The notes below the pieces were generated by a model that searched no databases, had not been told where the DNA came from, and saw nothing but the letters and a program-made list of their open reading frames with translations. From Octopus vulgaris (lineage: Eukaryota): 64,000 bases of DNA. The stretch is taken from NCBI GenBank assembly GCA_951406725.2, contig OX597817.1, forward strand, positions 124,000,001-124,064,000, in the 5' to 3' direction. This document shows, piece after piece, positions 16,342 through 64,000 of this stretch (its first letter is position 1; each line of letters opens with the position of its first letter). A program made the translations under genes and the position numbers.

Positions 16342-16746
16342 TGGAGTGGCTGTGTGGTAAGTAGCTTGCTAGCCAACCACATGGTTCCGGGTTCAGTCCC
16401 ACTGAGTGGCATTTTGGGCATGTGTCTTCTGCTATAGTCCCGGGCCGACCAACGCCTTGTGAGTGGATTTGGTAGACAGAAACTGAAAGAAGCCCGTCGT
16501 ATATATGAATATATATATATATATGTGTTTGTGTGTCTTTGTTTGTCCCCCTAGCATTGCTTGACAACCGATGCTGGTGTGTTTACATCCCCGTCACTTA
16601 GCGGTTCGGCAAAAGAGACCGATAGAACATGTACTGGGCTTACAAAGAATAAGTCCCGGGGTCGATTTGCTCGACTAAAGGCGGTGCTCCAGCATGGCCG
16701 CAGTCAAATGACTGAAACAAATAAAAGAGTAAAAGAGTAAAGAGTA
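16342..16746 (+). mobile_element. SINE family B (tRNA-like head, CORE-like segment, internal (TA)/(TG)n, (AAAGAGT)n tail) inserted in the LINE RT
   Basis: ggagtggctgtgtggtaag...ggttcagtccc...gactgaaacaaataaaagagtaaaagagt; near-identical copies at 28282, 29523, 56497 and 59133. Confidence 0.92.
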
Positions 16747-17517: not shown

Positions 17518-18905
17518 AACCTCGGAAGAATTTGAACTCAGAATATAAAGACAGATGAAATATCACTAAGCATTCCACCTGGTGTGCTAACGTTTCTGCC
17601 CACAGGATATTGAAAGATCTGTTAGCTTAACAGCTTAACAACCTCACCAGTGCTGAAGTTTTGTTGGAGCTCCTGAAAAAAATTTTGGCTTCAAAGCTAA
17701 ATGCCAGAAACATAATTTCGGCAATAAACTCGTGTGGGGGCACAGTTGTTCTGTATGGCACTGGATTCCTAAAGTGGACAGAGAAAGAGCTAAAGGAGAT
17801 AGACAGGAAGTCAAGAAAGCTCCTAACGATGCATGGAGCCCATCATCCACATGCAGACACTGATCACTTACACATGAAGAGAGCAAATAGAGGAAGAGGA
17901 CTGATTAAGTGTGGAAGACTGTGGGCATATCAAACACAAGAGGAAAAAGGGAGTATGAAAAACAGAGAAACAAAGTAAAACAAAGGGAGAAGTACAAGAA
18001 GGACATGAAGAAGAATTACGCAAGGGACTACACAATCAATTTCATATAGCCACAACAGAAGTTGCTGGAAAAAATAAGTGGGATTGGCTGATGAAAGGTA
18101 CTCTAAAAAAAGAGGCTAAGAGCACTATACTGGCACTGCAGGACCAAGCTTTGCCTATGAACTGGAGTGTCAACCTTAGGAATGAGCAAGTGTCTCCACT
18201 GTGCCACATCTGCAATAGAATGGATAAAACCTGTGCTCATATCACGAATGAATGCCCTAGACTTGCATAAAACCACAATAAGTTGTGGTGACATGATCAG
18301 GTAGCGAAAGTGCTACATTGGAAACTGTGTTAAAAGTGGGGGCTAGGGAGAGGCAAAACATGGTATGAGCACAAACTGTAGAGGGTAGCAGAGTCAGAGA
18401 CTAACAAAATCATCTGGGATTTCCCAGTCCAAGCAGATCAGATGCTAGAGCATAACAGACCAAACCTAGTGGTGGTGGATAAGGTGTACCACATATATTG
18501 ATGTTGCATGCCCCTTTGTCCCATGAATATTCAAGAAGGAATGTGTAAAGATAGATAAATACAACCCTCTTAAATATGAAATAGCCAAGCTATGGAAAAC
18601 AAAGAAGGTGAGGAGAGTTCCAACTATTGTTGGGTCCTTGGGAACTCTGTCAGAAGGCATCATGGAGGATATTAAGGAAATTGGAATAGAGTGCCCAGTA
18701 GAACTGTTACAAAAGGTTTGTTTCCTTGGCATGGCCTGAATAATCAGAAAAGTCACAGATAATTGGAAAGAATGGATAGCATGGTACTGTAGGCTGCTGG
18801 TAGCCAAGTCTGCTATGCATGCAGGATTCAAGGAGCTCCAACAAAACTTCAGCACTGGTGAGGTTGTTAAGCTGTTAAGCTAACAGATCTTTCAATATCC
18901 TGGGG

Positions 18906-19110
18906 ACAGAAACATTAGCACACCAGGTGGAATGCTTAGTAATATTTCATCTGTCTTTATATTCTGAGTTCAAATTTCTCCGAGGTTGACTTTGCCTTTC
19001 ATCCATTTGGGGTCGATAAATTAAGTACCAATTGCATACTGGAGTCAATCTAATCAACTGGCCCACTCCCCCAAAATTTCAGGCCTTATGCTTAGAGTAG
19101 AATAGAAAAG
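18906..19110 (+). mobile_element. SINE family A, slightly 5'-truncated, with TSD
   Basis: TSD aatatcc(t/g)gggg at 18894-18905 and 19111-19122. Confidence 0.85.
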
Positions 19111-22055: not shown

Positions 22056-22275
22056 CTAACCCTAAAACCCCAACTCTAACCCTAAACCTTAACCCTAACC
22101 CTAAAACCCTAGCACTAACCCTAACTCTAAAACCCTAACCCTAACCCTAAAACCCTAACTCTAAAACCCTAACCCTAACCCTAACCCTAAAACCCTAACC
22201 CTAAAACCCTTACCCTAAACCCTAACCCTAACCCTAAAATCCTAACCCTAACCCTAAAACCTTAAAGCTAAAACC
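22056..22275. repeat. Interstitial telomere-like array (CCCTAA)n mixed with CCCTAAAA
   Basis: Directly visible; bracketed by inverted repeats at 21788-21856 and 22294-22365. Confidence 0.92.
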
Positions 22276-26829: not shown

Positions 26830-27498
26830 GTTGTAAATACATCCAGTTGCTCAAGGACAATTTGATACCAGACTTGGATGAAGGTGAAATTTGTCAGCAT
26901 GATGGAACAATCATGCCACAGATCACATGCAACACAACAGAGTCTGGCTTGACAAAGGTGTTACCGTATTGAAAGATTGGCCAGCTCAGAGCTCTGACTT
27001 AAATATCACAGAGCAAATGTGGACAGATCTGAAAAGAAGAGTTCTTGAAGAGTTGTGGGAGCTCAGCTACAGAGAATGGTATCTCATACCTGTGAAGAAG
27101 GTGAGGGATTTGTATGCATCTCTTCCCAGGCACAGTGAAACAATTATTCAAGATAAGGCAAGCCACATGAAATATTAACAATGTACAGTAACTTCTTGAA
27201 ATGAACATTATGTAATAAATTTTCATTATAGACATTTTTCTGTTTTAAAACACTGTATCATGATTGGGTAATGTGAGGTGGCTAGAAATTTTGCACGGTC
27301 ATTTTTGGTGGTTGTCTTGCATCTTTCCCTCTCGTTCAGAACCACTACTACAAAATATAATGATTAGGTATGAAAATGACTCCAGCAGGGCCAATGTTCC
27401 ATCTGTAAAAAATGCAACATGAAACAATCTCTTACAAGTTGGCAATTAGTAGAAATTTACCATAGTTTAAAGTGGCTGAAGACTTTAGCACAGTACTG
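26830..27498 (+). mobile_element. Tc1-like transposon, 3' half (decayed transposase C-terminus and right end)
   Basis: KYIQLLKDNLIP..ICQHDG, then WPAQSSDLNITEQMW (WP.QSPDLN.IE..W motif); ends gactttagcacagtactg|TA. Confidence 0.88.
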
Positions 27499-28281: not shown

Positions 28282-28701
28282 TTTCTTTTATTTCTTTTAT
28301 TTCTTTTACTTGTTTCAGTCATTTGACTGTGGCCATGCTGGAGCACCGCCTTTAGTCGAGCAACTCGACCCCAGGACTTATTCTTTGTAAGCCCAGTACT
28401 TATTCTATCGGTCTCTTTTTGCCGAACCGTTAAGTGACGGGGATGTAAACACACCAGCATCGGTTGTCAAGCAATGCTAGGGGGACAAACGCAGACACAC
28501 AAACACACACACATACATATATATATATACATATATACGACAGGCTTCTTTCAGTTTCCGTCTACCAAATCCACTCACAAGGCATTGGTCGGCCCGGGGC
28601 TATAGCAGAAGACACTTGCCCAAGATGCCACACAGTGGGACTGAACCTGGAACCATGTGGTTGGTTAGCAAGCTACTTACCACACAGCCACTCCTGCGCC
28701 T
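28282..28701 (-). mobile_element. SINE family B, full length
   Basis: Reverse complement of 16342-16746. Confidence 0.92.
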
Positions 28702-28783
28702 ATTGTGTAACAAAATTTTTATTTCTTTTTGTCTTTGGTCAGTAAGTGTTATTTCCTATATGTTTCTGTTCAGAAATCAAAGG

Positions 28784-29522: not shown

Positions 29523-29673
29523 TGTGTGGTAAGTAGCTTGCTTACCAATCACATGGTTCTGGGTTCAGTTCCACTGCGAGGCACCTTGGACAAGTGTCTT
29601 CTACTATAGACTCGGGCCGACCAAAGTCTTGTGAGTGGATTTGGTTGATGGAAACTGAAAGAAGCCCATCGTA

Positions 29674-29722
<49 letters not shown>

Positions 29723-29930
29723 ATATGTTCGTGTGTCTGCGTTTGTCCCCCCAACTTCGCTTGACAACCGATGGTGGTGTGTTTACGTCACCATAACTTA
29801 GCGGTTTGGCAAAAGAGACCGATAGAATAAGTACTAGGCTTACAAAGAACAAGTCCTGGGGTCGATTTGCTCAATTAAAGGCGGTGCTCCAGCATGGTCA
29901 CAGTCACATGACTGAAACAAGTAAAAAGTA

Positions 29931-29933
<3 letters not shown>
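29523..29933 (+). mobile_element. SINE family B
   Basis: Same head, microsatellite and tail as 16342. Confidence 0.92.
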
Positions 29934-29992
<59 letters not shown>

Positions 29993-30792: not shown

Positions 30793-32334
30793 TATATCAG
30801 TTTAATGCTCAGAGAAATAGAGATGTATTTAATGTTTCAGACATAAGCCCTTCATAGGATGAAGAGAATGAGATAAAAGGGGAGAAGAAGATAAACAGAA
30901 GGACAATGTGGATGGGGTTAGAAAAGGTTGTAAAAAAGCAGCAAAAACATGTGAAGATCACTTAGGTGCCATTTTGTTGGGTGTGTATGTATGTGTGTAT
31001 GTTTGTGTGTGTTTGTGTGCATATAATTTGGTAGTTTTGCTGTTAATAAATAATCCATTCAATTTAGGGATTCAAAGCCAAGTGGAATAAGAGCTGTCTT
31101 ACTTTAAAACAGGTAAGAGGTTAACGCTTAGAAGGGCTGCACCTGTAAACAATGCCTCAGATAACACATTTATGCAACACACATGAGTACGGACAAATGA
31201 ACTTAAATATGAACAAACACTGACACAATCACATAATATAAACCTGGAATGAATGCCACTGTAAATTATATCAAGTGTGATATCAATTCTACCAGTCTTT
31301 AACTTGAACACAGGTGATAAAGGGCCATGCTAATTAGTGTTTAACACAGATACAATATCTCACATTTGAAGCAGAGATATAATCAAATATATTGACTCTG
31401 TAATTTATCTGGTACTTTCTTTTATGAATCCCAAAAGGATGAATAACACTGTTGATATTGTTGCGATGGGAATTCTGTATGTAAAGGACTATAGTAATTA
31501 ATATTTTGTCAACTTAGAGAGCTGACATACCAGGACAGTTCAAAAAGAAAGCCAATCCAGAGCTCTGTGTCTTGTTCACAGCTGTAAATGCTTCAGGTGG
31601 TACCTGGCATTGTGATTGATGCTCTGATTCACAATATAAGATGATCATCAGAAATGGAATAGAGAACTTATAATGTTCAAAACAATATATTTACTAGTGA
31701 AGGTATCACAATGCCAGAAACTGAGTGAAGCATTTAAGGTCTGAACTTGTAAAGTAGAGTACCAGAATGGTTTGCCTTATCAATCTTCTAGCTCTGTAAA
31801 AGAAGAAATATCTTGAAGTATTTTTATGGCCCTTTATATTTTGCGTACAAGTCCAGCCAAGGTTGCTATCATCCTTTCTTGGTTATCAAGAAAATAAAGT
31901 ATCAGTCCTATGAAGCATCTTTGATTTGTATGGAATTAATATAATTCTAAACCTAAAACGAAAACTAAATTCTATATCAAATAACTGTGTTATCCTAAAT
32001 TAGATCTTCAAATTCATTGGTTTACCACAGTTTTCAATAGAAAGAATAAAAAGAATTGAAAGTATATGATTTACTGGATTTAAGCCATTGATACTGGTGT
32101 CTCCCAAGCTTATTCAAGCAGAGACTACAGCTGGGAATCTTAAACAAAACTTATAATACTTATTAATAATTATCGCAAAGCTAACATGGCAGTCCAGGAA
32201 AATAGGACAAATGCTGCCTTTGATTAGCTCCTCTAGCTAGCCATCACCTCTAGCTAGCTATGTGACACATGAACCTGTGTCCATTATAACATTCGAGCAG
32301 GGGAGGTCAGCCACTTCCTCTTGCTGGTCAGGCA

Positions 32335-32377
32335 TCTACAGACTAGTTTCAGGGTATTTCCCCCTTATCTATGTAGA
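32335..32377 (-). ncRNA. Minimal hammerhead-like motif with U3:A8 core variant
   Basis: TCTACA-TAGATAA-GGGG-gaaata-CCCT-GAA-ACTAGT-C-TGTAGA: 6-bp stem I, stem II, palindromic stem III, GUC site. Confidence 0.72.
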
Positions 32378-35300
32378 GCAGCCAAACCCAGAGCGACTTA
32401 TAATATTATTTGTATTTTAAGAGTAGAATAATGGTATAAATCCCAATAACCAAAGTTTTCTTGTGAAAAGCAGTAACTTCAGGTATTATATTATCTTAGA
32501 ATGACATTACTTCCAATGCAAGTCACGAGAGGAAGAAAACTAAATACATTAGTTTGATGGATTGCAAGACTGGTTGAGAAATGGACAAAACACCCTAATG
32601 GTATTTAGTTGCGTCCTTTAATTTTCTGAGATCAAATCTCACTGGGGGTTGAATTTGCCTTTCAACCTTCTGGTTTTGATAATGGAAATATTAGTCAAAT
32701 AAGTACTGGATCAGTTTAATTTACTCTGCCCTCAGCCAAATTTGGTAGCCTTCTACTGAAATCATTAAACTGGTCTCTGATGATGATTTATATTGTACCA
32801 TGCAACAATATCAATAACTTTACACTTAGAGAGAAAGAGCGACAACACATGCAGCCCTGTGTCAATAAAACAGGTGTGCATATATGTTTAACAGCATGTT
32901 TCTGCACACGTATCACACACACATACATGCACATTGAAATGGGAGTAGAAGTATAAACATTAGTCTTCAACACAAAGGAACATTTCACAAAAGCAATAAA
33001 TTTCACACCTCATATTTTTTCCTTGCTTTCATTACAAAACAAAAATAAAGAATGAAACAAATATATAAATAAAACAAATATTAAATAAATACATTAAAAA
33101 CAAATTATCACAACTTTTACTATTGAAAGATTCCAACTGGTTCTTCGTATATTGATTTATATTGTATTTCTTTTCTATGCTAGATTACTTCAGCACACCA
33201 GCTTAGCTCAAAGATACACATCAAATTGCATGCTACCACATCTAGTTTTCATTACTTAGTATTTAATGGATATCCTAAAGTGACTTAAGTATGTGTTTAA
33301 ACTTTCTCTGAAGCTTCTGTTTGTAATAAACACCTTTTAAACTAAAACTTGCTACAGTGGTTTATCTAAATAGACATAGCGCATTAGTTATCATTTATGA
33401 TCCAACAGTAGATGTTTCTTATATAAGCAAACTTGTTCACTGATCTTCATTTGAAGTCAAAATATTTCGTGTTATCAGTATTATTTCTTATATGATCTAA
33501 GTTCAATTTTACTTTTCATCTTTTGAGGGTTGATAAAACAAGCACCAGTGTTGCACTGGGATCAATATAGTCACATATGTTATCCCTAACGAATATGTAC
33601 TTTGGGCTAATATTAGAAAACATTATTATCTCAAATTATGAGGGTGGTTGATTAGCAGAATTATTGGAGCTTTGGACAACATGCTTTGTGATATTTCTTC
33701 TAGCTCAATATGTTCTTAGTTCAATTCCTGCCAAACTTAATTCTACCTTTCATCCTTTCAGTGTTGATAAAATAAAGTATCGATTAGGTAGAGAGGGGTT
33801 CAAGGGTATTGACTAACCCTCTTCCTTCATTTTGCTAACTTCCAATCTTATTTAGAAATTATTATTATTTCGTATCATAAAGACCATGTATAGAAATTTT
33901 GGTAGAACATTTGAAGAATAAAAAAACGTTTTTAAATGTCTAGCATATCAACTTCGACATTGTTTCTCATTTTCCAATAAATAAATATCAGTCAATTACT
34001 GGGGTTGGGGTTATAAAGTATAACTATCCCACTTCACAAAAAATATATGGGCTTGTGTGATTAAGAAAATAATATTATCTGATTGTCGACACTGAGTCCC
34101 ACTGAAGTTAATAAAATAAATAACAGTTAAGTACTAGGACTGATATAATAAATTACCACAATAATCCAAGTTTCCTCGATTCATATCAGTTCTTTTTATA
34201 TTTTTACTTTCATTCTATACTGTGTTACCCATTGGTCCATTCTTGGAATTTTTTTTACTATCAGAAATCGTTGCTGTCCTCTCATTCAATACTTTTCTAT
34301 TTCAGGTGAAAGAGATATTGTAAATGGCCTACCTAGACACTTCTTATGACGCAATGTGGAAAATTCTAAAAGACAATGAGTACTAGTCTACATCCTCAGA
34401 TCTGAAAGGGTGAAAAGCAAGTTGAACTTGATACCTAGAGTGCAAAGATTGGAAACAAAATACTGCAAGGCAATATATCTGACACTTTAATGACTCAACT
34501 AATTTACTAGTTTTCTTGTACTAATTAAAAATTATTATTTTAAATAAATTATAAAGGCACCAAATAGCAACATTGATAAACTGTGAGAGACTACATTCTT
34601 TGTGGCTCTCTGTTGCTTCCTTGCATGTAACATACTCAAATCAACCTCACCTTAAATTTGCCATTTCTTTTGTGAATAATAAAATTTAGTAGCAGTCATG
34701 AAATGAAAGGTTAATAATATAGCTCTTGACATTATCAATATGGCTAAAAAGGAGATAAATGGCATAACTTGTAGAGTACAATGAACAAAATACCATGTAA
34801 CATTTAACACTATTCATACCACAAATGTATATAAACATGTCTATAGCAATGAAATCCCAGTGGCACATACATGTGTCACTCACAGACTGCTGCAAATTCC
34901 TGGAGACACTTGTATATGATCTACTCATTGTGTTGTGAAATCACAGGGATGTTTATATACATCTTAAACAATCAAATGGGATTTCAGAGCTACAAATTAG
35001 AAATGCTTATATATGTGTCACAATTATGGTGTTAATTGCATTCAATTCCTGTTGTACTCAGCTTTGCCTTTCATTTTTCAGGAATTGATAAAATAAGTTC
35101 TACTCAAGAAATAAAGCTGATTTAAAAGATCACTTCCTTTCCAACACATTCATAAGCACCAATATGTTTTGACCTTCTGTCAAAATTAAGAAATCTTTAT
35201 TAAAATTGTTAAGATAATTTTCAAATAATAACCCAATATATATCTTTTGTCAGGTCCAGTATATATTTTATATTTAAATGTTACCCTTCTGGAATTCCCA

Positions 35301-39665: not shown

Positions 39666-40080
39666 GGCAGCGAGCTGGCAGAAACGTTAGCACACCAGGC
39701 GAAATGCTTAGCAGTATTTCGTCTGCTGTTACGTTCTGAGTTCAAATTCCGCTGAGGTCGACTTTGCCTTTCATCCTTTTGAGGTCGATAAATTAAGTAC
39801 CAGTTATGCACTGGGGGTTGATGTAATCGACTTAATCCCTTTGTCTGTCCTTGTTTGTCCCTTCTATGTTTAGCTCCTTGTGGGTAGTAAAGAAATAAGT
39901 ATTTCCTCTGGCACTATGTCCTGAGTTCAAATTCCTCCGAGGTCGACTTTGCCTTTCATCCTTTCAGGTCGATTAAATAAGTACCAGTTATGCACTGAGG
40001 TCGATATAATCGACTTAATCCGTTTGTCTGTCCTTGTTTGTCCCTTCTGTGTGTAGCACCTTGTGGGCAGTAAAGAAATG
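39666..40080 (+). mobile_element. SINE family A partial dimer within a single TSD
   Basis: TSD agatgtgcagg at 39657-39667 and 40081-40091; body and tail repeated twice. Confidence 0.9.
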
Positions 40081-43013: not shown

Positions 43014-43048
<35 letters not shown>

Positions 43049-43049
43049 A

Positions 43050-43973
43050 CTGGGTCATGCCATAAATAATTTCAGTTTTTTTATACTTCTTTTAGTTTTC
43101 AAAATTAAGATAAACAAAGTTTATTTTTAATCTAAAACACATACACTCCTTCGTTTTCTACAATGCTCTTCTATCTATCTCATAGACTTGCAAGGGTCCC
43201 TCTTTTAAAATTCATTTGTCTATGAGGAAAAACACTCCACCAGTACTCTTCTGACATTGAATACAGAATTCATATTTTTTCCATCCAAATGATTTTGAAG
43301 ACTGTGGAATAAATGATAATCAGCTAGGGTAATATCCAGTGAACATGTTCGGTGGGGCATCGTTTCTCATTCAAACTGCCCCAGCCTTTGGAATGTCATC
43401 CTTGCCATGTGTGACTGAGTATTATCCTGATGGAAGAAGCCTTTCATCTTAAAACCAAAAATGGTCGTTTTTCTTCTAGCGTAGGTGTTGATGAATGGTT
43501 GAATGACAAAATCCAAGCTTCTCTGCTAGTTCCTCGACAGCTACGTTGGGATTTTCTTCCACAAGGGTTTGCAGGATGTCCTCATCAAACTCTAAAGATC
43601 TTCCAGGATGAGGCTCATCTTCTAGGCTGCAGTTTGCAGCTCAGAATTTCTGGAATCACCGTTGAACTTGGCTTATGCTTATTGCCTGATCCCAATATAC
43701 AGCATTAATATACCTTGCACTTTCCATTGTGTTGTTGCCTTTATAGAACTCATAGAACAAAATAGGCTGAATATTCTCCTTTGTCCTTCCATTATAACTT
43801 TGGAAAAATAACTGTTAAAATCGAACTGCACTCTTTAAAACTTACACTAGGAATATCACACGGTAAAATTATTACCTGCTTTTATTGTAAGTTGATGCAG
43901 TTAGTTTATCCCGTCCCCCTCTGACTTTTAGTTCATGCAATTAAAATTAAACATCATTTATGCGATGAACCTA
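43050..43973 (-). mobile_element. Internally deleted mariner, decayed
   Basis: TIR-like ends tgggtcatgccataaataat / atcatttatgcgatgaacct; minus strand encodes HTH remnants and FHQDN; homologous to 62667-63583. Confidence 0.85.
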
Positions 43974-43974
43974 T

Positions 43975-44035
<61 letters not shown>

Positions 44036-56467: not shown

Positions 56468-56496
56468 TATATACATATATATATATATATATATAC

Positions 56497-56904
56497 ACTC
56501 TTCTACTTGTTTCAGTCATTTGACTGTGACCATGCTGGAGCATTACGTTTAGTTGAGCAAATCGACACCAGGACTTATTCCTTGTAAGCCTTGTACTTAT
56601 TCTATTGGTCTCTTTTGCTGAGCCACTAAGTTAAGGGGACGTAAACACACCACCATCGGTTGCCAAGCGATGCTGGGGGGACAAACACAGACACACAAAC
56701 ATATAGACATACATACACATACATATACATATATACATATATATGACGGGCTTCTTTCAGTTTCCGTCTACCAAATCTCATGAGGCCTTGGTCAGCTCAA
56801 GGCTATAGTAGAAGACATTTGCCCAAGGTGCCACGCAGTGGGACTGAACCCAGAACCATGTGGTTGGTAAGCAAGCTACTTACTACACAGCCACTCCTGC
56901 GCCT
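56497..56904 (-). mobile_element. SINE family B
   Basis: Reverse complement of the 16342-type element. Confidence 0.9.
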
Positions 56905-57309
56905 ATATATATGTATGTATATACACACACACACACATATATACACTGTCAGACAGACAGACAGATAAATATAGCCGGTCTGTGGGCTTACCCAACCATA
57001 TCTATCTATCTATCTATCTGTCTATCTATCTATCAATCTATCTATCTATATGTCTATCTATTACTCTACTGTTCTATAACGTAGAGTGTGATTCTATTTT
57101 GGATTTAGGAATTACTGAAGCTTGTGGTTGTTTACTCCTTATGCAGAGTCTGACTACCTCCTGTACCTACACCTGTGATCCATCATAGCATCTGCTGTGG
57201 CCTTTTAAACCAGACAATGTTTTGAGAAGGCACCCATATAGATTGCATATCCGATTTGGACCACCAAAAGCTGCAGTTAAGTTATATAGATAGATAGATA
57301 AATTACAGT

Positions 57310-59132: not shown

Positions 59133-59531
59133 ATGTGTGGTAAGTAGCTTGTTTACCAACCACATGGTTCCGGGTTCAGTCCCACTGCGTGGCACCTTGG
59201 GCAAGTGTCTTCTACTATAGCCTCAGGCCGACCAAAGCCTTGTGAGTGGATTTAGTAGATGGAAGCTGAAAGAAGCCCGTCGTATATATGTATATATATA
59301 TACATATGTGTGCGTATATGTTCGTGTGTCTGTGTTTGTCCCCCTAGCATTGCTTGACAACCGATGCTGGTGTGCTTATGTCCCCGTCACTTAGCAGTTC
59401 AGCAAAAGAGGCCGATAGATTAAGTATTGGGCTTACAAAGAATAAGTCCCGGGGTCGAGTTGCTCGATTAAAGGCGGTACTCCAGCATGGCCGCAGTCAA
59501 AAGACTGAAACAAGTAAAAAGAGTAAGAGTA
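59133..59531 (+). mobile_element. SINE family B
   Basis: Same as 16342. Confidence 0.92.
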
Positions 59532-59884
59532 TATACTCTCATAAATGCATCTTTCCCTGTGGTTTACTTTATATTTTCACTTACTGACATAAATCTCACC
59601 AGAGGGAGATCTATGAGGTTTTTAACAGCAACAACTCTCTCAAACAGCACCCTATTATCTTAAGATAAGGTTGCTTCAGAATACATTGTTTTCAGTACAC
59701 TTTAAGAATTCCCTTGATAATAAGTATAAGTGATCAGTGATGACCAGAGGCTACATGCAACTGGAAAATGAAAGAGTAATATAACATGGAAATGCGCACT
59801 AAATAATTATATATATATATATATATATATACATATGTGTGTGTATGTATATATATATATATCTATATATCTATATACATACAC

Positions 59885-62589: not shown

Positions 62590-62666
62590 ACCCAATAAGG
62601 AATGGAATATGGCAACCGCTCTCTATTGTTGAAAGTGAATAGATACATATGTATATAATTATATAT

Positions 62667-63583
62667 ATGGAGCCATCCCATAACTAATGTGTTTTTTTCA
62701 ATTGCATGAACTAAAAGTGAGAGGGGGTGGGATAAACTACTTGCATCAACTTGCTATAAAAGCAGGTTGTAATTTTACCTTGGCTTATTCTTAGTGTAAG
62801 TTCTGAAGTGTGCAGTTCGATTTTAACAGTTATTTTTTCAAAGCTACAATGAAAGTGACAAAGGAGCATATTTAGCTTTATGAGTTCAATAAAGGCAACA
62901 ACACAATGGAAAGTGTGAGGAATATTAATGCAGTATATGGGGATCAGCCAACATGTGTAAGCCAGTGTCAATGGTGGTTCCAGAAATTCCGAACCAGAAA
63001 CTACAGCCTAGAAGACAAGTCACATCCTGGAAGATCTGTAGAGCTCAATGAGGACATCCTGAAAAACATGGTGGAAGAAATCCCTTCATAAGTGTTGGGG
63101 AACTGACAGAGAAGCATGGATTTGATCATTCAATCATTCATCAACACCTGCGCTAGAAAAAAAAGTGACCATCTTTGGTTTGAAGATGAAATGTCTTCTT
63201 CCATAAGGATAATTGTTCAACCACATATAGCAAGGTTGACATTCAAAAGCTGGAGCAGTTTGAATGGGAAACGATGCCTCACCCACCATATTCACCAGAC
63301 ATTGCCCCATCTAATTATCATTTATTCCACAGTCTTCAAAATCATTTGGACAGAAAAAATATGAATTCTGTAGAAGAAGTCAGAAGAGTACTGGAGGAGC
63401 ATTTTTCCTCATGGGCAAAGGAATTTTGGAAGATGGGCCTTGTAAGTCTACCAGAGAGATAGAAGAGCATTGTTGAAAATGAAGGAGAGTATATTGTAGA
63501 TTAAAAAAAGAACTTCATTTATCTTAACTTTTAAAAACTAAAAGAAGAATCAAAAGGTCACATTATTTATGAGATGGCCCAAT
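62667..63583 (+). mobile_element. Internally deleted mariner, decayed
   Basis: TIR-like ends gccatcccataactaatgtg / cacattatttatgagatggc; WFQKFR...LEDKSHPGR and PHPPYSPDIAPSNYHLF (YSPDLAPSD motif). Confidence 0.92.
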
Positions 63584-64000
63584 ATGTGTATCCGAAGTAT
63601 TCAAGTTGAGTGTTCAAGTGGTCTTTAGAGTACATGATATTCTAGTAGCATTCTCCACTGTGCATAAACTCACATTTTTGTCTGCTATTTTCCCCTTATT
63701 CTTCCCTTGTGTTGCATTTGTTGCAAGCTGCTTTTAGATAAAGTAGTAAACATCTGTTTCTTCATTCGTAAAAGAAGTGTAATTACAAATCACTTTTGTT
63801 CTTAGTTCTCTTCTGATCCTCTTGGTATGTTTTCTCGTGTTCATTTTTTTGTTTTGGGGACTGGATTTTGCTTTATATGCTACTTCAGTGCTGCAAGCAT
63901 GTTTAAGTTAGCATGTCTTTCTTCCTTTAACTTGCAAACACTGAGGTCTTCAATCAAGCAGTATTGTTTAGTATCTATACTTTCTCATTCAGAACTTAAC

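Follow-up and report, generated by a model that had tools for sequence, protein, structure and literature searches.

We analyzed a 64,000-nucleotide stretch of Octopus vulgaris DNA (contig OX597817.1, positions 124,000,001 to 124,064,000; hereafter the window, with positions counted from its first letter) in which a hammerhead ribozyme motif lies within a 237-bp insert (Table 1). The reading that we consider probable is that this insert is a worn, partial copy of an abundant non-coding repeat with a U3:A8 ribozyme core, that the family is likely a retrozyme without long terminal repeats (non-LTR), copied from circular or multimeric RNA by a Penelope-type reverse transcriptase (RT), and that this particular copy is likely inactive. 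Behind it stand a high copy number of the family, fixed insert ends, copies that run past both of these ends and a filled orthologous site in two other organisms.

A type I hammerhead with a U3:A8 core

Helices I, II and III surround the core of the motif and the ends are joined in helix I, which is the type I topology. Helix sizes are canonical: 6 bp in helix I, 4 bp in helix II, and 2 bp plus a palindromic loop in helix III. Canonical metazoan hammerheads are described with a helix I of 6 bp, a helix II of 4 bp and a helix III of 1–2 bp with a palindromic loop (PMC4209133). The original prediction had described a minus-strand hammerhead with a perfect 6-bp stem I and a GUC site, set in an insert flanked by a 10-bp repeat. 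The letters from 32377 to 32335 are as claimed, and the repeat is exact, with two occurrences in the window.

Positions 3 and 8, which form a tertiary pair in hammerheads, are Watson-Crick partners (U3 and A8) both here and in 20 contigs of a public run described below. Bases for the conserved loop-loop contact (PMC2632901) are also present: U at 32334 on the 5' side of loop 1, A at 32355 on the 3' side of loop 2 and C at 32378 as the 3' pyrimidine of loop 1. The pair that closes helix II is G-U, not G-C, and position 4 (32370) is A, not the U expected of the hammerhead class. The self-complementary hexamer of helix III would be expected, from its letters, to pair between two copies of the RNA; in a self-dimer fold of this copy, other segments were paired.

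That the motif is a chance match is scarcely credible. We used a descriptor that admits C3:G8 or U3:A8, any base at position 4, a 6-bp stem I and a 4-bp stem II; it matched once in the window, at this motif, and never in 300 dinucleotide shuffles. Family letters at position 4 (U4) and in loop 2 are, moreover, closer to the hammerhead consensus than those of this copy. What can be said for chance is that Rfam finds no hammerhead here, a result given below with its scope.

Table 1. Coordinates of the insert, its flanking repeat and the hammerhead elements (positions in the window; minus-strand elements are given in the order in which they are read).
Feature	Positions	Strand	Details or basis
Insert, read as a partial and circularly permuted copy of a high-copy family (unit about 290 nt)	32159-32395	minus	237 bp
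Left copy of 10-bp direct repeat, likely target-site duplication	32149-32158		exact match to 32396-32405
Right copy of 10-bp direct repeat	32396-32405		exact match to 32149-32158
Eleven bases beyond the left repeat, matching the part of the family unit found past 32161 in other copies	32121-32131		loose ends of X1 and X7
Type I hammerhead	32383-32331	minus	sequence map and folds
Distal helix I	32383-32381 with 32331-32333	minus	
Internal loop 1	32334 opposite 32380-32378	minus	U opposite U-G-C
Helix I	32377-32372 with 32340-32335	minus	6 bp, all Watson-Crick
Core positions 3-9	32371-32365	minus	U3 (32371), A4 (32370; family U4), G5, A6, U7, A8 (32366), A9 (32365)
Helix II and loop 2	32351-32364	minus	4 bp (32364-32361 with 32354-32351), 6-nt loop
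GAAA, then C-U-A-G, U16.1 and C17	32350-32341	minus	GAAA 32350-32347; U16.1 at 32342; C17 at 32341
Helix III region	32342-32347	minus	2 bp and 2-nt loop; self-complementary hexamer
Predicted cleavage after C17	between 32341 and 32340	minus	GUC site; hammerhead numbering
Segment 3' of the ribozyme, in the family complementary (10 bp and 6 bp, nested) to the absent piece	32291-32310	minus	by eye
8-bp copy-specific replacement, duplicating a neighboring motif	32232-32239		32230-32244 resembles 32247-32261

The insert belongs to a high-copy family

Four of 24 listed runs of public contigs were compared with the window at 80% likeness: X1 and X20 (both organism A), X7 (organism D) and X14 (organism E). 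The label of X20 as RNA is a guess, and this run covers only the two repeats and not the flanks. The statements that follow draw on 40 of the 98 difference rows, 15 of the 19 joints, 24 of the 484 loose ends and 32 of the 4,830 pieces.

In the three DNA-type runs, matching records number 2,182 in X1, 1,153 in X7 and 1,401 in X14, nearly all of them on the insert. The summed contig depth peaks over the insert at about 12,700 times that of the flank in X1, 6,600 times in X7 and 12,700 times in X14; these ratios are not copy numbers, and they reflect very many copies of the family. Most records are 90–95% or less than 90% alike to the copy in the window.

The family match has fixed ends. Depth steps and loose ends occur at 32161 and 32391 in all four runs, with 53 (X1), 34 (X7), 47 (X14) and 3 (X20) records at the former and 15 (X1), 16 (X7) and 2 (X20) at the latter. 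Other copies thus extend beyond both ends of the insert, and the overhang letters beyond 32161 and 32391 are common to different runs. Further copies in the window were not found by blastn, and two short overhang motifs matched there at chance level. Motif scans for the family gave no match in viral contigs and none in prokaryote genomes. Three loci in metagenome contigs carried family motifs and were set aside as chance, having no likeness beyond the pattern.

Structure and age of the insertion

The insert has a G+C content of 46%, compared with 31–34% in its flanks, and contains no open reading frame of 100 amino acids. By exact search, the 10-mer that flanks it occurs exactly twice in the window, 237 bp apart, and the ends of the family match at 32161 and 32391 sit 2–4 bp inside these direct repeats. 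For pairs of points 231 bp apart, an exact 10-bp direct repeat lying no more than 6 bp from them was found at 9 of 6,280 test positions free of low-complexity sequence (0.14%); with microsatellites included, such pairs occurred at 131 of 9,072 test positions.

The same insertion is found in two other organisms. In organism E, one contig runs from the left flank into the insert (31850-32189, 25 differences in 340) and a second from the insert into the right flank (32376-32697, 18 differences in 321); the orthologous contig carries one substitution in the left repeat, at 32151. In organism D, contigs contain both junctions, with 1 and 5 differences. The insertion predates a divergence of about 6–7%, because organism E carries it with that level of difference. 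The empty site that the original prediction had proposed to look for in relatives was not found among the 15 of 19 joints listed in the four runs; the relative at about 6–7% divergence has the site filled.

U3:A8 is a trait of the family

The core letters of the family can be read from 20 X14 contigs with a loose end behind 32363 (agreement 0.85), which on the minus strand give U3 U4 G5 A6 U7 A8 A9. Among the 40 difference rows, none records a majority change at 32366 (position 8) or 32371 (position 3); 32360, six bases from position 8, is listed as changed with 84, 75 and 62 contigs. Several long records pass 32366 and halt at 32367-32369, just short of position 4. Because the X14 contigs read U3 and A8 and no change is listed at either position, U3:A8 is a family trait that this copy inherited. 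No C3:G8 copies were seen among the contigs compared.

These letters agree with the first of two consensus forms, TTGATAA, that the original prediction had anticipated for the family, and a CTGATGA (C3/G8) consensus was not observed. Its remark that A4 may be decay gains support from the family U4, and its statement that U3:A8 is a tolerated natural variant is documented, this pair being already known in nature (PMC3088659, PMC4209133). By contrast, the proposal that the double change betrays selection on this copy does not hold up, as the change belongs to the family founder and the copy has at least seven further differences and looks decayed. Nor is covariation within the family borne out, since no C3:G8 copies were seen.

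Outside the core, family loop 2 reads CAAAUA. Its first base is G in the window and C in the family at 97% (X1), 93% (X7), 21% (X14, 62 contigs) and 89% (X20) of depth.

The copy in the window is worn

The copy differs from the family majority at 32219, 32246, 32270, 32291, 32297, 32313 and 32319 (84–99% of depth where computed or read), and four of the listed differences are of CpG type. Over the 8-bp replacement, depth drops to about 570, with clusters of loose ends at 32231 and 32240. We would read as decay the change of U4 to A, the first base of loop 2, the CpG-type changes and the 8-bp replacement. Fold prediction offers a consequence for the first of these: with A4, core bases 3–5 are predicted to pair with loop III at a probability of 0.86–0.89, compared with 0.02–0.09 with U4. 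In this model, A4 would lock the core in a misfold. A4 is most likely decay particular to this copy, which likely no longer self-cleaves.

It is very improbable that the copy has been retained as a working ribozyme for a host locus, with U3:A8 selected here. Such a role would suit the presence of the insertion in both organism D and organism E and the fully paired helix I of this copy. Against this, U3:A8 also occurs in other copies, and three features point the wrong way: A4, the altered first base of loop 2 and the G-U pair that closes helix II. The motif is also solitary, with a 2-bp helix III and no partner in the window, and the RNA-labeled run X20, which lacks flank coverage, cannot separate transcripts from DNA. 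The copy in the window is probably a dead insertion, and nothing points to a role for it in the host.

The family unit extends beyond the insert

A single X1 contig connects 32391 back to 32164 through letters that overlap the right overhang at its end (X7) and the left overhang at its start (X20). Because these letters overlap both overhangs, the unit seems to measure about 290 nt: by-eye overlap suggests that the overhangs join head to tail, with a piece of about 64 nt absent from the copy in the window. Among the 15 joints considered, 4 run backward (1 spanning the entire insert) and 8 switch strand; each comes from a single contig at 80% likeness and is weak. Tandem and inverted partial copies have been described for Penelope-type insertions (PMC8557442).

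The absent piece may pair with the segment 3' of the ribozyme. By eye, the X1 right overhang ends in 10 letters that form the exact reverse complement of 32291-32300 once family letters are taken at 32291 and 32297, and the six letters that precede these correspond, nested, to 32305-32310; in this stretch, X7 and X20 depart from X1 at 1–3 letters. Pairing of 10 plus 6 bp would turn helix I into an extended rod.

It is quite improbable that this family is a linear SINE-like element whose ends are fixed, which a LINE moves and which bears the hammerhead as a passenger. The copy is shortened at both ends relative to the family and has no simple-repeat or poly(A) tail, the overhangs seem to close a circle, no tRNA gene was found in the window, and none of the places listed is one where many molecules begin or end. 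Such an element would nonetheless be in keeping with a window that is rich in SINE-like repeats and has a weak zf-RVT match of LINE type (E 6e-5, under the cut-off). A 10-bp duplication is likewise compatible with LINE-type insertion, and Schistosoma hammerhead repeats have been termed SINE-like (PMC6765202).

A proposed retrozyme-like route to the insertion

The non-LTR retrozyme reading, by analogy with known families (PMC7229834, PMC4209133), suggests the following route. Tandem copies would be transcribed into multimers. Two ribozymes would then join through their palindromic helix III and cleave after C17, and ligation would close the monomers into rod-like circles. A Penelope-type endonuclease may then have nicked an A+T-rich site and primed reverse transcription from an arbitrary point on the circle, and copying may have stopped after about 0.8 unit and left the 10-bp duplication. 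The copy spans the predicted cleavage site, with 55 nt upstream and about 180 nt downstream of it. Because the copy crosses the scissile bond, its template would have been circular or an uncut multimer rather than a linear monomer that had been cut. U3:A8 would keep the tertiary 3-8 pair, which makes it likely that the founder was an active ribozyme.

In unit size (237 bp here, about 290 nt inferred), G+C content (46%), many copies and absence of coding capacity, the family falls within the description of retrozymes. Retrozyme duplications exceed 4 bp, and the repeat at the family ends here is 10 bp, with no empty site in the four runs.

Several observations weigh against this reading. At its gathering score, Rfam reports no hammerhead match in the whole window, and at E up to 10 on 31900-32700 it gives four unrelated weak matches and no hammerhead, with the decayed copy alone being scored. 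Agreement among loose ends at 32161 and 32391 is only 0.54–0.80, the full head-to-tail join consists of one contig and by-eye overlaps, no empty site appears among the 15 of 19 joints listed in the four runs, and no Penelope-type protein is linked to the family. The match at 32121-32131, with a rough chance of 2e-4 to 8e-4 calculated on the neighboring 11-mer, may be an older remnant or junction filler; if it is filler, the direct repeat is not a plain duplication.

Letters within the ribozyme add to these points. Position 32370 (U4) does not appear in the 40 of 98 difference rows listed, and depth drops about 20- to 40-fold past it. This drop leaves positions 3 and 4, together with helix I on its 5' strand, poorly sampled. 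With no row listed for 32370 and low depth past it, U4 is taken from the loose ends of one run (the 20 X14 contigs) and several long records ending at 32367-32369. At position 1.3 of helix I, the base is C in 71% (X1), 81% (X7), 49% (X14) and 94% (X20) of depth; its partner 32374 is not among the rows listed, and the pair may be broken in the main subfamily. A variant at 32344 makes loop III non-palindromic in 15% (X1), 22% (X7), 0% (X14) and 89% (X20, 2 contigs) of depth, and perhaps marks a subfamily independent of self-pairing dimers.

Comparison with known hammerhead families

Comparisons in this section refer to the available text of each source. The closest counterparts are the metazoan non-LTR retrozymes (Cervera and de la Peña, 2020; PMC7229834), which share with the present family a non-coding unit of 150–450 bp, a G+C content below 50%, a canonical type I hammerhead and thousands of copies; they also have a duplication of more than 4 bp, which the likely target-site duplication of the present copy would match. 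A retrozyme family of the axolotl that cleaves as a dimer also has a weak palindromic helix III (PMC7229834). The present case differs in its U3:A8 core, which the available text of that paper does not mention, in a copy shorter than one unit, in a host group not among the examples named there, and in being known from sequence alone. Among vertebrate non-LTR retrozymes, dispersed monomers are common and are seen as offspring unable to transpose, and eight of nine tested elements showed no cleavage (bioRxiv 10.64898/2026.07.22.740005). That study covers 35 species, of which four are invertebrates (three insects and one anthozoan) and none a mollusc, and its available text discusses no core variant.

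A close match in overall fold is the canonical hammerhead of Schistosoma mansoni (PMC2632901), which resembles ours in loop 2 (CAAAUA, family letters) and in an internal loop 1 that carries a U on the 5' side and a pyrimidine on the 3' side. It differs from ours in that the latter has U3:A8 instead of C3:G8, a 2-bp palindromic helix III and a smaller internal loop 1. A close match in the core is found in the Cercyon U3-A8 minimal hammerheads of the same species, where the motif S. mansoni (3) has identical letters at positions 3–9 (PMC4209133). Cercyon motifs have an extra base after A9 and no defined loop 1, whereas the motif in the window has canonical helices and loops with no RT frame attached. 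Perreault et al. (2011; PMC3088659) report that C3-G8 covaries to U3-A8 in several natural ribozymes and that such pairs were earlier active in vitro; the tolerated variant at position 4 is U4C, not U4A, and no high-copy animal repeat with a U3-A8 core is described in its available text.

The Cercyon likeness raises the possibility, which we judge unlikely, that the insert is a solo terminal-repeat (pseudo-LTR) fragment of an autonomous Penelope-like element whose long RNA is processed by the ribozyme. Penelope terminal repeats bear type I hammerheads with a palindromic helix III, and it was in Schistosoma, in the Cercyon family, that the U3:A8 core first came to light; about 1,300 Penelope-linked U3:A8 motifs are known there, most of them single (PMC4209133). 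The 8 inverted joints among the 15 listed are also in line with a pseudo-LTR origin, for which tandem and inverted partial copies are expected. On the other side stands the architecture of the ribozyme. In Penelope minimal hammerheads, helix II is longer (7–8 bp in Schistosoma), helix I is shorter and one more base follows A9 (PMC4209133), whereas this hammerhead combines a 4-bp helix II and a 6-bp helix I with loop contacts of the Schistosoma type. The minimal architecture is thus not found here, though some of the Penelope motifs listed in that paper also lack the extra base. In addition, the overhangs seem to join each other after about 64 nt, and a Pfam scan of the 140 longest of 439 open frames gave no RT or GIY-YIG match close to the insert, a result that concerns this copy only. 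The pseudo-LTR and retrozyme readings grade into each other, because retrozymes have been proposed to derive from Penelope repeats (bioRxiv 10.64898/2026.07.22.740005).

For cephalopods, the giant squid genome has 235 Rfam hammerhead-1 matches, counted without description (PMC6962438), and Penelope-type remnants are known (PMC8557442). Neither this family nor a retrozyme of canonical fold with U3:A8 turned up in our literature search; supplements and a 2017 paper on dimeric Penelope hammerheads may bear on this. The search likewise found no measured effect of U4A.

Surroundings of the insert

The window is A+T-rich (24–42% G+C in 2-kb bins), with 129 microsatellite rows and abundant dispersed repeats. 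It contains no tRNA gene and no Rfam family at gathering score, and the 140 longest of 439 non-repetitive open frames give one Pfam match above cut-off, a Mos1-type helix-turn-helix (HTH) domain at 62876-63088. The window looks like intergenic or intronic animal DNA, and its SINE-like repeats are reminiscent of octopus genomes.

Several other repeats were observed. The HTH match (E 2.4e-12) lies in one of two inverted copies of about 950 bp (43048-44000 and 62639-63584, 82% alike), a pair of decayed mariner-type elements. Below-cut-off Pfam matches to zf-RVT (17959-18267, E 6e-5) and DDE_3 (26903-27175, E 3e-4) are probably LINE and Tc1/mariner remnants. A second, unrelated repeat 200 bp to the right of the insert (32616-32682) is a worn piece of a SINE-like family of about 180 bp, also present at 18956, 39734, 17451, 15724 and 51955; at 39736-40079, a 183-bp SINE-like unit is repeated head to tail in 1.9 copies. 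A dispersed repeat of about 400 bp occurs in five copies (16343-16736, 28293-28703, 29523-29958, 56468-56906 and 59134-59535; 82–93% alike), often adjoining (TA)n. A degenerate telomere-type repeat of about 220 bp (22056-22275), with CCCTAA units and 8-base variants, is an interstitial telomeric tract or remnant.

Implications

The family adds a lineage and a core variant to the catalog of animal retrozymes. Its many copies provide a natural test set for how the U3:A8 core, a weakly paired helix III and the contacts between loops trade off against one another in the rate of cleavage. A blind spot also comes to light: descriptors with a fixed CUGANGA miss such families, and Rfam missed this copy.

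A bolder picture, which we put forward tentatively and hold to be possible rather than probable, is of a retrozyme family with thousands of copies in several related species, probably octopods, with a fixed U3:A8 core in a full Schistosoma-type fold and an abundant rod-shaped RNA circle of about 290 nt. If this is true, CUGANGA-based searches, such as that in PMC8557442, would be blind to the family, a whole layer of U3:A8 retrozymes may lie hidden in animal genomes, and elements labeled "ribozyme-free" may carry ribozymes.

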